Assembly: GCA_030540495.1 (NCBI GenBank)
Contig: JAUNWC010000001.1
Span: 1-26,307, forward strand
Source of the DNA: Bacteroidota bacterium
Lineage (GTDB): Bacteria; Bacteroidota; Bacteroidia; Bacteroidales; P3
DNA length: 26,307 nt
Reading direction: 5' to 3'
Position numbers and translations under genes: made by a program. This document shows, piece after piece, positions 9,336 to 11,835 of this stretch (position 1 is the stretch's first letter; each line of letters begins with the position of its first letter). The notes beneath the pieces were generated by a model. It was not told where the DNA came from. It saw only the letters and a list, made by a program, of their open reading frames with translations, and made no database searches.

Positions 9336-10001
9336 ATGAAAAGATTTTTAGTAATGACTATGATGGTCGTAATAATAGCTATAAGTGGCTATTCACAAGA
9401 AAGTAATGTAAAACGTCATAATTTTGGTATAGGAATCTCCTCCTCCTTATCCTCTTCTACAAATAAATTCTTAAAACACATTGGCAATAATACTTTTGAA
9501 GGAAATTTCGGCAAGATAGATAAGAATTTTGATTTAAACCTATCGTTTCTTTACGAATACAATGTTAGCAAAAATATAACCATAGGAGTGGCTCCCACAT
9601 ACAGAGAGAGCAGGGCTGAAATTAATTATCAATATGAAAGTAGCCTGTTTGGAGAAACAACAGAGACTATCTATGATATAGAAGTTCCTTTGTTTGTAGA
9701 TTACAAATTTTCAGTAATGGAAAAGAACAAGTTGTTTGCCGGAGTAGGTTTTTCGGGCTTGTTTAATATAAACACCGATTCAGAGGAAATTGCAACAAAA
9801 AATACATTCTCTCCTTATATGCTTTTCCGTTTGGGATTTGATGTCTATGGAAAACACAGAATACAATTTCTTATGCAATATAGATGTAACCTTTCGGCAA
9901 ATACTTATTATAATGGCATAGATTACAATATGTTCCCTCATATACAAAAAGAGTATTTTAAAGTAAATACTTTTGATGTAGGAGTAAATTTCTTTTTCTA
10001 A
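9336..10001 (+). CDS. Outer-membrane beta-barrel (porin-like) protein
   Basis: 221 aa. Signal peptide, amphipathic strands (LSFLYEYN, IEVPLFVDYKF) and a C-terminal Phe (FDVGVNFFF). Confidence 0.75.
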   Translation: MKRFLVMTMMVVIIAISGYSQESNVKRHNFGIGISSSLSSSTNKFLKHIGNNTFEGNFGKIDKNFDLNLSFLYEYNVSKNITIGVAPTYRESRAEINYQYESSLFGETTETIYDIEVPLFVDYKFSVMEKNKLFAGVGFSGLFNINTDSEEIATKNTFSPYMLFRLGFDVYGKHRIQFLMQYRCNLSANTYYNGIDYNMFPHIQKEYFKVNTFDVGVNFFF

Positions 10002-10013
10002 AAAGAGAAAAGT

Positions 10014-10126
10014 ATAAGTATTATAAGTTAGCATAGGTTACAGCCACAGGCTGTTTTATAGGACGCATAAGCGTATGACATAATTTAAGTTTTCTTACAC
10101 TCCTATCTTAACCTATGCTAACTTAT
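10014..10126. repeat. Extragenic palindromic element, copy A (REP/REPIN- or MITE-like)
   Basis: Perfect 18-bp inverted repeat ATAAGTTAGCATAGGTTA (10023-10040) / TAACCTATGCTAACTTAT (10109-10126). It encloses the small hairpins ACAGCC-ACA-GGCTGT and ACGC-ATAA-GCGT. Confidence 0.8.
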
Positions 10127-10156
10127 TTTAACCCATTCCCAAAAAATAAAAATTAC

Positions 10157-10175
10157 AATTTTTTGTCAAAAAATT
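10157..10175. promoter_or_regulatory. Inverted repeat abutting the tnaA -33 box, candidate regulator site
   Basis: AATTTTTTG-T-CAAAAAATT. Perfect but low complexity. Confidence 0.3.
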
Positions 10176-10206
10176 TGGTAGTTATAAGTATTTTGTTATA
10201 AATTTG
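10174..10206 (+). promoter_or_regulatory. Sigma-A promoter of tnaA
   Basis: TTTG (10174-10177), 21 nt, TAAATTTG (10199-10206). Predicted TSS ~10213, giving a ~185-nt leader. Confidence 0.75.
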
Positions 10207-10231
10207 CAAAAAAGGATAATCATTATATCTG

Positions 10232-10306
10232 ATGGAAGAAAAATTACATATAAGCGTAACTAATCCCTATTTGAATATAAAGAAAAGGGATAGTTTCTTT
10301 ATGTAA
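10232..10306 (+). CDS. Putative 24-aa leader peptide MEEKLHISVTNPYLNIKKRDSFFM upstream of tnaA
   Basis: Hand-translated ATG...TAA, not in the ORF track. Lies within the predicted leader, with a local resemblance to E. coli TnaC. The start context is weak (C at -3). Confidence 0.35.
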   Translation: MEEKLHISVTNPYLNIKKRDSFFM

Positions 10307-10350
10307 TCTTTCTGAGGGCTAAGGCATACTCTGTCTTAGTTTTCTTTATT
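10237..10350 (+). promoter_or_regulatory. Structured tnaA leader: long hairpin plus terminator-like hairpin (candidate attenuator)
   Basis: 10237-10250 pairs with 10300-10313 (13/14). 10259-10268 pairs with 10286-10294 (one bulge). CTAAGGCA-TACTC-TGTCTTAG (10319-10339) is followed by TTTTCTTTATTTT. Confidence 0.5.
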
Positions 10351-10397
10351 TTCAATTAAGACAATTTTTTCTTTATTAATCATAAAAATTTTTTATT

Positions 10398-11774
10398 ATG
10401 GAATTACCATTTGCAGAAAGTTGGAAAATTAAAATGGTGGAACCTATAAGAAAATCCACTAAAGAACAAAGAGAACAATGGCTTAAAGAAGCCCATTACA
10501 ATGTATTTCAATTGAAGAGTGAGCAGGTTTATATTGACCTTTTGACAGACTCTGGAACAGGAGCAATGTCTCAGGAGCAATGGGCTGCTATGATGTTAGG
10601 AGATGAATCATACGCTGGAGCAACCTCGTTCTATAAATTTGAAAGTACAATAAAAAGAATTTTTGGTTTGGATTATGTTATTCCTACCCACCAAGGTCGT
10701 GCTGCAGAAAATGTTTTGTTTTCTTATCTTGTAAAAGAAGGTAACGTTATTCCTGGCAATGCTCACTTTGACACAACCAAAGGACATATAGAATCTCGTC
10801 ATGCTTTTGCTATAGACGTAACCATACCTGAGGCTAATGATACTCAACTTGAATTGCCTTTTAAGGGAAATGTTTCCATAGAGTTGTTGAAAAAAGTGTT
10901 GGAAGAGAATAAAGGCAACGTACCTTTCTTTGTGCTTACAGTAACCAACAATACTAAGGGCGGACAACCTGTAAGTATGCAAAACATAAAAGAAACTTGT
11001 GAGGTTTGTCATTCTTACAATGTTCCTGTGGTTATGGACTCTGCTCGTTTTGCCGAAAATGCTTATTTTATCAAAACAAGAGAGGAGGGATACAAAGAAA
11101 AGACAATAAAAGAAATTGTTAAGGAAATGTATTCATACGTTGATGCTGCCACAATGTCTTGCAAAAAAGATGCAATAGTAAATATGGGAGGATTTATTGC
11201 TATGCGTAACAAAGAATGGTATGAGGGTTGTAAATTGTTCTGCATACCTTTTGAGGGTTATGTAACATATGGCGGTTTGAACGGCAGAGACCTTAATGCT
11301 ATAGCAGTAGGTTTGGACGAGAATACAGAGTTTGATATGCTTGAAACTCGTATTAAGCAAGTTGAGTATTTAGCAAAGAAACTTGACGAATATGGCATAC
11401 CTTACCAAAGACCTGCAGGCGGACATGCTATATTTGTGGATGCAGATAGAGTTTTAGACCAAATACCAAAGGAGGAATTTCCAGGACAAACTCTTACTTG
11501 TGAATTGTATTTGGAGGCAGGAATACGTGCTTGCGAAATAGGATATATGCTTGCCGACAGAGACCCTGTAACAAGAGAGAATCGTTTTGGAGGAATGGAT
11601 TTGCTTAGACTTTGCATACCAAGGAGAGTTTATACCAACAACCATATGGATGTAATTGCCGCTGCTTTGAAAAATGTTTATGACCGCAGACACGAAATCA
11701 AAAGAGGCGTTGCCATAGAGTGGGAAGCACCTTTGATGAGACACTTTACCGTCCAACTAAAAAGATTAGGATAA
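10398..11774 (+). CDS. tnaA: Tryptophanase (tryptophan indole-lyase, PLP-dependent)
   Basis: 458 aa. IDLLTDSGT, GDESYAG, PTHQGRAAE and MSCKKD (PLP Lys). Residues that distinguish tryptophanase from tyrosine phenol-lyase are the tryptophanase type: FDTT (Asp), CEIG (Ile) and RHFT (His). Confidence 0.95.
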   Translation: MELPFAESWKIKMVEPIRKSTKEQREQWLKEAHYNVFQLKSEQVYIDLLTDSGTGAMSQEQWAAMMLGDESYAGATSFYKFESTIKRIFGLDYVIPTHQGRAAENVLFSYLVKEGNVIPGNAHFDTTKGHIESRHAFAIDVTIPEANDTQLELPFKGNVSIELLKKVLEENKGNVPFFVLTVTNNTKGGQPVSMQNIKETCEVCHSYNVPVVMDSARFAENAYFIKTREEGYKEKTIKEIVKEMYSYVDAATMSCKKDAIVNMGGFIAMRNKEWYEGCKLFCIPFEGYVTYGGLNGRDLNAIAVGLDENTEFDMLETRIKQVEYLAKKLDEYGIPYQRPAGGHAIFVDADRVLDQIPKEEFPGQTLTCELYLEAGIRACEIGYMLADRDPVTRENRFGGMDLLRLCIPRRVYTNNHMDVIAAALKNVYDRRHEIKRGVAIEWEAPLMRHFTVQLKRLG

Positions 11775-11795: not shown

Positions 11796-11835
11796 AATAA
11801 GTGGCAAGTTCAAAGAACTTGCCACTTATTTCTTT
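11796..11835 (+). terminator. Intrinsic terminator of tnaA
   Basis: AATAAGTGGCAAGTTC-AAA-GAACTTGCCACTTATT, a 16-bp perfect stem followed by TCTTT, ~20 nt after the stop. Confidence 0.88.

Follow-up and report, generated by a model that had tools for sequence, protein, structure and literature searches.

A proposed leader-peptide attenuator with an intrinsic terminator upstream of the tryptophanase gene of a Bacteroidales bacterium

Introduction

Can the leader of a Bacteroidales tryptophanase gene let the ribosome decide whether the gene is transcribed? Indole made by gut bacteria feeds host signalling and the formation of the uremic toxin indoxyl sulfate, and Bacteroidales are among its major producers. 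A full-text search of the literature yielded no account of a leader peptide or attenuator for tnaA of Bacteroidota and none of a TnaC-like leader outside Proteobacteria, and a 2026 paper on tnaA of Porphyromonas gingivalis names mapping of the promoter and start site as future work. The window studied here, the whole stretch of 26,307 nucleotides that was analysed from a Bacteroidota genome (contig JAUNWC010000001.1), carries a gene of this kind. The original prediction, made from the letters of the window, placed a long hairpin and a terminator-like stem in front of it, in a position suited to ribosome-controlled antitermination.

Our analysis suggests that this leader is most likely a TnaC-like switch for indole production, of a kind so far undescribed. 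In its specific form, which we hold with moderate confidence, the leader is a leader-peptide transcription attenuator of tnaA with an intrinsic terminator, and a ribosome arrested towards the end of this ORF impairs the terminator next to it, by weakening it or by steric hindrance. An arrest peptide combined with an intrinsic terminator instead of Rho would be a compact and portable induction module for Bacteroidota genetics.

The tnaA locus and its promoter

The gene in question (10398-11774, forward strand) encodes a tryptophanase of 458 amino acids, as originally supposed, and is scored at 904 bits by the NCBIfam profile NF053783 'tryptophanase TnaA' (cut-off 750). Tyrosine phenol-lyase was rejected as its identity, with TIGR02618 giving 538 bits, below the cut-off of 720.7. 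There is no tnaB downstream, the next ORF lying on the opposite strand, and the terminator scan places a terminator-like hairpin of 16 pairs after the gene (11796-11830, forward strand), which indicates that tnaA is monocistronic. A gene for a T9SS cargo protein is a neighbour of tnaA in the window and, together with the named relatives, assigns the genome to Bacteroidales.

A Bacteroidota-type promoter is predicted at 10174-10206 on the same strand, with the -33 element TTTG at 10174-10177 and the -7 box TAAATTTG at 10199-10206, in the arrangement TTTG-N21-TAAATTTG. Matches to the pattern TTTG-N17-23-TAnnTTTG number 10 in the window against 2.6 expected, the promoter block stands out as conserved in the genus-level conservation profile, and TAnnTTTG lies at most 80 nt 5' of the start of the leader ORF in 48 of the 53 loci that bear this ORF. 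Since the -7 box ends at 10206, the transcript should start about 20 nt before the leader ATG at 10232, at a predicted position of about 10212-10214. Both leader hairpins lie 3' of this predicted start, and the leader ORF and tnaA would share one transcript.

The leader ORF and its peptide family

The leader ORF (uORF; MEEKLHISVTNPYLNIKKRDSFFM) has 24 codons plus TAA and occupies 10232-10306 on the forward strand; translation puts its ATG at 10232 and corrects the start of 10233 given earlier, its stop codon is at 10304-10306, and it ends 91 nt before tnaA. Upstream regions of 122 tnaA genes, mostly from metagenome-assembled genomes, were collected for comparison, and in 57 of them, 54 distinct and all from Bacteroidales, an ORF encodes the core [F/Y]-L-N-[I/V/L]-K-x-[R/L]-D-x-[F/Y]. 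By this recurrence, the core in the window is Y13-L-N-I-K-K-R-D-S-F22, with codons at 10268-10297 (forward strand). The aromatic and Leu positions of the core had been left out of the search pattern, and there the aromatic is F or Y in 35 of 35 cases and Leu is found in 28 of 35. First and second codon positions of the core are fixed and third positions vary, giving synonymous changes; the core Leu alone is written with all of the CTN and TTR codons, with near-maximal entropy at the third position. Judged by such comparisons of sequence, the uORF is a real leader ORF conserved at the level of its peptide. The core Asn lies 14-16 codons from the start codon in most loci, and the tail after the conserved F/Y runs from 0 to 10 codons among relatives. 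No Trp codon occurs in the window uORF or anywhere in the family alignment.

A profile built from 52 homologous uORFs recovers the window uORF as the sole significant copy in its own genome (35.6 bits, E 2.4e-8). Phylum-wide spread of the peptide was not found in 400 genomes sampled evenly across Bacteroidota, which yielded one true extra match, in Bacteroidales and 5' of tnaA, plus one chance match, and hmmscan gave no Pfam or NCBIfam match to the window peptide at E <= 10, nor did 51 related peptides match either collection. A short leader devoid of the uORF is found at many tnaA genes of Bacteroidales, named Bacteroides species among them. The distribution of the module within the order is thus patchy, and the uORF plus its spacer can be regarded as an optional module inserted between promoter and gene.

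Butyricimonas is among the carriers of the uORF (loci L106 and L116). The uORF is absent from tnaA of Bacteroides fluxus, B. acidifaciens and Bacteroides sp. GD17 (loci L104, L118 and L124), and in several other Bacteroidales the promoter is only about 40-50 nt 5' of the tnaA ATG. At another locus (L038, G034:C95), the NIKxRDxF uORF is replaced by three tandem mini-ORFs of 11 codons, MQI(R/H)FLLIF(I/V)C, spaced 77 nt apart before tnaA.

Structure of the leader RNA

All of the stems first proposed, as well as the sequence TAAGACA at 10357-10363, are present in the window, and folding reproduces both hairpins. The long hairpin (10237-10313, forward strand) encloses the uORF and has outer arms AGAAAAATTACATA (10237-10250) and TATGTAATCTTTCT (10300-10313), with 13 of 14 positions paired (93% complementary), and inner arms ACTAATCCCT (10259-10268) and AGGGATAGT (10286-10294); its 3' arm includes the last sense codon and the stop codon of the uORF. 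Calculated for naked RNA at 37 C, as are all thermodynamic predictions in this work, the fold of 10225-10400 has -39.4 kcal/mol (z -4.2; 0 of 200 dinucleotide shuffles as stable), and its MFE and centroid forms alike show the long hairpin (-20.7 kcal/mol alone) and a hairpin of 13 pairs. The uORF region alone folds at -21.8 kcal/mol (z -4.4); of 1000 synonymous recodings of the peptide, 99.8% are less stable (mean -12.4, sd 2.9).

Excess structure in the uORF recurs among the relatives. Across 47 loci, uORFs compared with their own synonymous recodings have a mean z of -1.16, with 30% below -2, and the 5' part of a uORF pairs with its own stop region at -8.64 kcal/mol vs -7.50 kcal/mol with those of other loci, a difference reached by 1 of 2000 permutations; related loci are non-independent, so that these and the other statistics on recurrence of structure overstate significance. 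It is very improbable, in our judgement, that the stems arose by chance in a leader that is AT-rich and of low complexity, and have no function. Codons rich in A (AAAGAAAA) and T runs do pair readily, several alternative A/T pairings exist and the exact helices are not conserved, but chance would have to account for z values of -4.2 to -4.4 against dinucleotide shuffles, a place in the top 0.2% of synonymous recodings and the excess structure that dozens of homologous leaders show at the same two sites.

Conservation of the exact hairpins, with covariation, was not borne out. RNAalifold returned 0 consensus pairs on nine aligned uORFs, so that classical covariation cannot be claimed. Projected onto the same alignment, the window structure leaves 60.8% of cells paired, with 72.6% in the inner helix and 50% in the outer helix, and it has a covariation score of 0.213 vs 0.156, which is reached by 2 of 500 shuffles. 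Within the genus, nucleotide conservation is restricted to the promoter, the uORF core, where it has a period of 3 nt, and the AT-rich segment ahead of the tnaA ATG.

These results also bear on the suggestion that the stems are a riboswitch or a protein-binding RNA acting independently of the uORF. The strong predicted structure and the covariation score just given speak for such an RNA. However, a cmscan of 9900-10500 gave only chance-level matches to Rfam families even at E <= 10, the terminator hairpin shows no sequence conservation within the genus, RNAalifold finds no pairs, and it is the frame, the start codon and the peptide that are conserved. This part of the original prediction was accordingly dropped, and we consider such an RNA scarcely credible, the least probable of the readings discussed here.

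The second hairpin as an intrinsic terminator

The second hairpin, CTAAGGCA-TACTC-TGTCTTAG at 10319-10339, can be extended to 10314-10344 and is followed by a T-rich run at 10340-10353, so that the terminator-like element as a whole spans 10314-10353 on the forward strand. Under its strict criteria, the consensus terminator scan reports 10314-10344 with 13 pairs, 4 of them G-C, and a loop of 5, followed by TTTATTTTCA. The extended 13-bp stem has an energy of -13.6 kcal/mol and is followed by TTTATTTT, and the 8-bp core stem has -7.1 kcal/mol and runs directly into TTTTCTTTA. A G+C-containing stem-loop with an immediate U run, the form of an intrinsic terminator, is what 10314-10344 presents; the terminator-like nature claimed for it earlier is upheld, and it differs from the Rho-based arrangement of E. 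coli. Termination would fall at about 10345-10352.

Hairpins at this position are common among the relatives. A hairpin of -5 kcal/mol or lower that starts between -15 and +10 nt of the uORF stop occurs in 33 of 54 loci vs 8.6 +/- 2.6 in shuffles, and at a threshold of -9 kcal/mol the figures are 18 loci vs 3.1; the 60 nt 3' of the stop have a mean fold z of -1.6. Strict terminator-like sites are found in the spacer between uORF and tnaA at 9 of 54 loci, vs 0.6 in shuffles and 0 in the reverse complement. The T run is less general. At least 5 T in the 8 nt after the first hairpin were counted in 11 of 37 loci against a background of 18% (p = 0.055), and at least 6 T in 19% vs 6%. Only about 20-30% of the homologous uORF-end hairpins have such a run, that of the window being the clearest, so that intrinsic termination cannot be the output of the family as a whole. 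It is plausible that intrinsic termination is the output in this window and in a minority of the relatives.

The scarcity of T runs is the first argument for a different reading, in which the arrest peptide is regulatory and its output is something other than intrinsic termination: the hairpin would be a mechanical barrier or pause element that helps to hold the ribosome or RNA polymerase, or the stalled ribosome would block Rho or an RNase, and the T run would be incidental to an AT-rich spacer. The first hairpin of the relatives starts a median of 13 nt after the conserved F/Y codon whatever the length of the tail, and a spacing of 13 nt is where downstream structures impede the ribosome, as known from frameshift stimulators. 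The spacer between uORF and tnaA is 51% T (46 of 91 nt), and a rho gene is encoded in the same genome, which keeps the Rho route available. Against this stand the strict terminator criteria under which the window hairpin is reported, the excess of such sites over shuffles and of runs of at least 6 T over background, and the RNA right after the uORF, which is structured and C-poor (15% C) and hence a poor loading site for Rho. We regard a barrier or Rho-based output as rather unlikely, though it deserves serious consideration.

The rho gene itself (contig C206:4687-6532, minus strand) was matched in two adjacent frames, covering profile positions 5-145 and 150-414; such a split suggests a frameshift, the insertion of a domain or a fault in the assembly.

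Ribosome geometry and alternative pairings

How might a ribosome on the uORF act on the attenuator's terminator? Established toeprint geometry predicts that a ribosome whose A site is on the stop codon, with its P site at 10301, would cover the RNA to about 10316, and the uORF stop is 7 nt from the extended stem and 12 nt from the stem core. Such a ribosome would keep hold of the long hairpin's 3' arm, but of the extended terminator it would melt no more than the base, which is rich in G-U pairs. Folds with a ribosome mask at four positions keep the terminator, and its 8-bp core persists whether the ribosome stands at the stop or on F22. No upstream antiterminator appears in the masked folds.

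The original prediction had also proposed two mutually exclusive folds, with the 3' arm of the terminator pairing instead with TAAGACA. The alternative pairing does exist: the arm at 10332-10341 finds a second partner, AATTAAGACA (10354-10363), at -7.8 kcal/mol, and with TTTTTT (the T run at 10365-10370) and a second copy of TTTTCTTTAT following, this element (10354-10376, forward strand) forms a second, weaker terminator-like hairpin. The duplex with the downstream partner reaches -10.2 kcal/mol in the window, the strongest of 37 loci, and these loci show a weak trend towards such partners (own -4.94 vs cross -3.89 kcal/mol; 3 of 2000 permutations). Mutual exclusion did not hold, since TAAGACA is transcribed after the T run and cannot compete before termination, and as an antiterminator it was rejected on these kinetic grounds. 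With the 8-bp core persisting in the masked folds and TAAGACA lying beyond the point of termination, simple occlusion of the terminator by the ribosome is unproven. What stands of ribosome-controlled antitermination is the Bacteroidota promoter upstream, the conserved uORF and the recurrence of a hairpin at its end; the persistence of the core in the masked folds counts against it.

Arrest at the peptide motif would fit the median spacing of 13 nt, the hairpin then lying just at the front of the ribosome. The window hairpin is at the far end of the range of distances from F/Y codon to hairpin, and an arrest placed by the motif would here leave the ribosome short of the terminator.

The failure of the masked folds to reveal an antiterminator would also suit a simpler function, in which the hairpin and T run would act constitutively, as a partial terminator or an insulator, the hairpin of the uORF would do no more than limit translation of the leader, no ligand switch would exist, and the peptide would be kept for another reason, such as a constitutive pause that sets basal read-through. 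The uORF has neither Trp codons nor the hallmark residues of TnaC, and many Bacteroidales tnaA genes, those of B. fluxus and B. acidifaciens included, have no uORF at all. It is nevertheless hard to explain, without a sequence-specific role of the nascent peptide, a core of ten residues that is found across families, varies synonymously and occurs only before tnaA; moreover, induction by substrate is the rule for tryptophanase in the systems studied (PMC3902921). A purely constitutive element is thus improbable.

Comparison with known leaders

E. coli TnaC (MNILHICVTSKWFNIDNKIVDHRP) and the window uORF are both 24-codon ORFs directly 5' of tnaA, and the window peptide shares with TnaC the residues LHI-VT and an aromatic-hydrophobic-Asn-Ile stretch at nearly the same distance from the N terminus (K-W12-F-N-I in E. 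coli, P-Y13-L-N-I in the window). The W12-P24 spacing is fixed in TnaC, whereas the distance from core to stop varies among the relatives of the window uORF. Cryo-EM has shown that helix alpha-1 of TnaC (residues 11-15, K-W-F-N-I) and D16 make up the Trp pocket, with N14 contacting A2058 (PMC8429421), and Trp12, Asp16 and the C-terminal Pro24 are functionally essential (PMC8429421; PMC10941005). In contrast, the window peptide has Tyr13 (Phe or Tyr in relatives), Lys17 and Met24 at the three positions, and a C-terminal Pro is absent from the whole uORF family alignment. The expected logic is shared, in that holding a ribosome where the leader ORF ends allows transcription of tnaA (PMC3902921; PMC8429421), but the spacer here is a structured hairpin with a T run, where E. 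coli has a boxA/rut site for Rho, and tnaA of the window lacks tnaB.

Homology searches separate the two peptides. Run over the whole genome, PF08053 (Tna_leader) did not match the uORF and gave only chance matches elsewhere; none of 51 homologous uORF peptides matches it, hhalign of the uORF family against the E. coli TnaC sequence alone gave a probability of 0.8%, and BLASTP of the window peptide against E. coli TnaC produced no alignment. By position the uORF does correspond to TnaC, as a short ORF immediately 5' of tnaA at 54 distinct loci. Membership of the TnaC family (PF08053 / TIGR02616) was rejected after the profile and hallmark-residue tests had failed, and the uORF at most works like TnaC from outside that family. 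In Proteus vulgaris, TnaC arrests at a sense codon, Lys33, so that arrest need not occur at the stop (PMC3902921). Arrest at a sense codon would fit the variable tails of 0-10 codons seen here, although the P. vulgaris peptide is a TnaC of the W/D/P type with Rho-dependent termination.

Attenuators of the trpL type likewise combine a promoter, a short leader ORF, hairpins and an intrinsic terminator before the gene, and in them a leader hairpin can shut off re-initiation. The Bacteroid-trp motif (Rfam RF01692) is a leader-peptide attenuator. A list in PMC2864571 gives this motif by name. Unlike the trpL type, the window uORF has no codons for a regulatory amino acid (no Trp), no mutually exclusive terminator and antiterminator folds were found here, the peptide sequence itself is conserved, and tnaA is a catabolic gene that would be turned on by excess and not by scarcity. 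In pyrBI-type attenuators, a closely following ribosome prevents formation of the terminator hairpin, and the leader ORF runs through the terminator. The window leader resembles these in having no antiterminator, so that the presence of a ribosome beside the terminator would decide the outcome, but its ORF ends ahead of the terminator, 7 nt from the extended stem and 12 nt from the core. Attenuation by ribosome proximity, of the pyrBI kind, is treated in PMC5021804.

A short conserved leader peptide with hairpins is also found in translational attenuation of the erm/cat type. Here, however, the tnaA start region is already unstructured: the final 60 nt 5' of tnaA have a mean fold of only -2.1 kcal/mol across 54 loci (z +0.4), and a ribosome parked at the uORF end leaves the predicted accessibility of the start unchanged (0.531 vs 0.533; 53 loci). 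Translational attenuation of the erm type was rejected on this result.

A model for the tnaA leader

We infer the arrest itself, its ligand and the way in which it would defeat the terminator, and the attenuator can be pictured as follows. Transcription would begin about 20 nt 5' of the 24-codon leader ORF, and the first ribosome would load before synthesis of the RNA is complete. The nascent core YLNIKKRDSF, which resembles the tryptophan-binding helix of TnaC, would hold this ribosome near the 3' end of the ORF, the trigger probably being free L-tryptophan. If no arrest takes place, the ribosome would depart, the long hairpin at 10237-10313 would close over the ORF and block re-initiation, and the hairpin at 10314-10344 with its T run would stop transcription before tnaA. 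If arrest does take place, the parked ribosome would keep the long hairpin open, abut the base of the terminator and partly melt it, and RNA polymerase would continue into tnaA.

A broader proposal, which we advance only tentatively, is that Bacteroidales evolved their own small-molecule-sensing arrest peptide independently of enterobacterial TnaC. The core [F/Y]-L-N-I-K-x-R-D-x-[F/Y] would rebuild in the exit tunnel an aromatic-x-Asn-Ile pocket like that of TnaC helix alpha-1, and it would act with the hairpin that encloses the ORF and with a second one at the front of the arrested ribosome, a hairpin that in this window would be a true intrinsic terminator. If true, a ribosome-plus-RNA switch undescribed to date would determine how much indole the Bacteroidales of gut and rumen release, and a second, unrelated peptide family controlling tryptophanase would be a natural experiment on the sensing of small molecules by nascent chain and tunnel.

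Other sequence features of the region

The sequence TTTCTTTAT occurs three times in the leader (10294-10302, 10341-10349 and 10368-10376), each copy complementary to the Ile-Lys-Lys codons ATAAAGAAA at 10277-10285, and the uORF core (10268-10286) and the T-run region (10340-10358) show 89% complementarity across 19 nt. This repeated complementarity of TTTCTTTAT may be a chance effect of low complexity. The AT-rich block TTATTAATCATAAAAA... before the tnaA ATG (10374-10397, forward strand), unstructured and conserved in the genus-level profile, is presumably an SD-less Bacteroidota translation initiation region, and could possibly be an operator. Further upstream, a perfect 18-nt inverted repeat, ATAAGTTAGCATAGGTTA (10023-10040) and TAACCTATGCTAACTTAT (10109-10126), with arms 68 nt apart, lies 5' of the tnaA promoter and 3' of the upstream ORF, which ends at 10001, and may be the terminator of the upstream gene or a copy of the window's palindromic repeat family.
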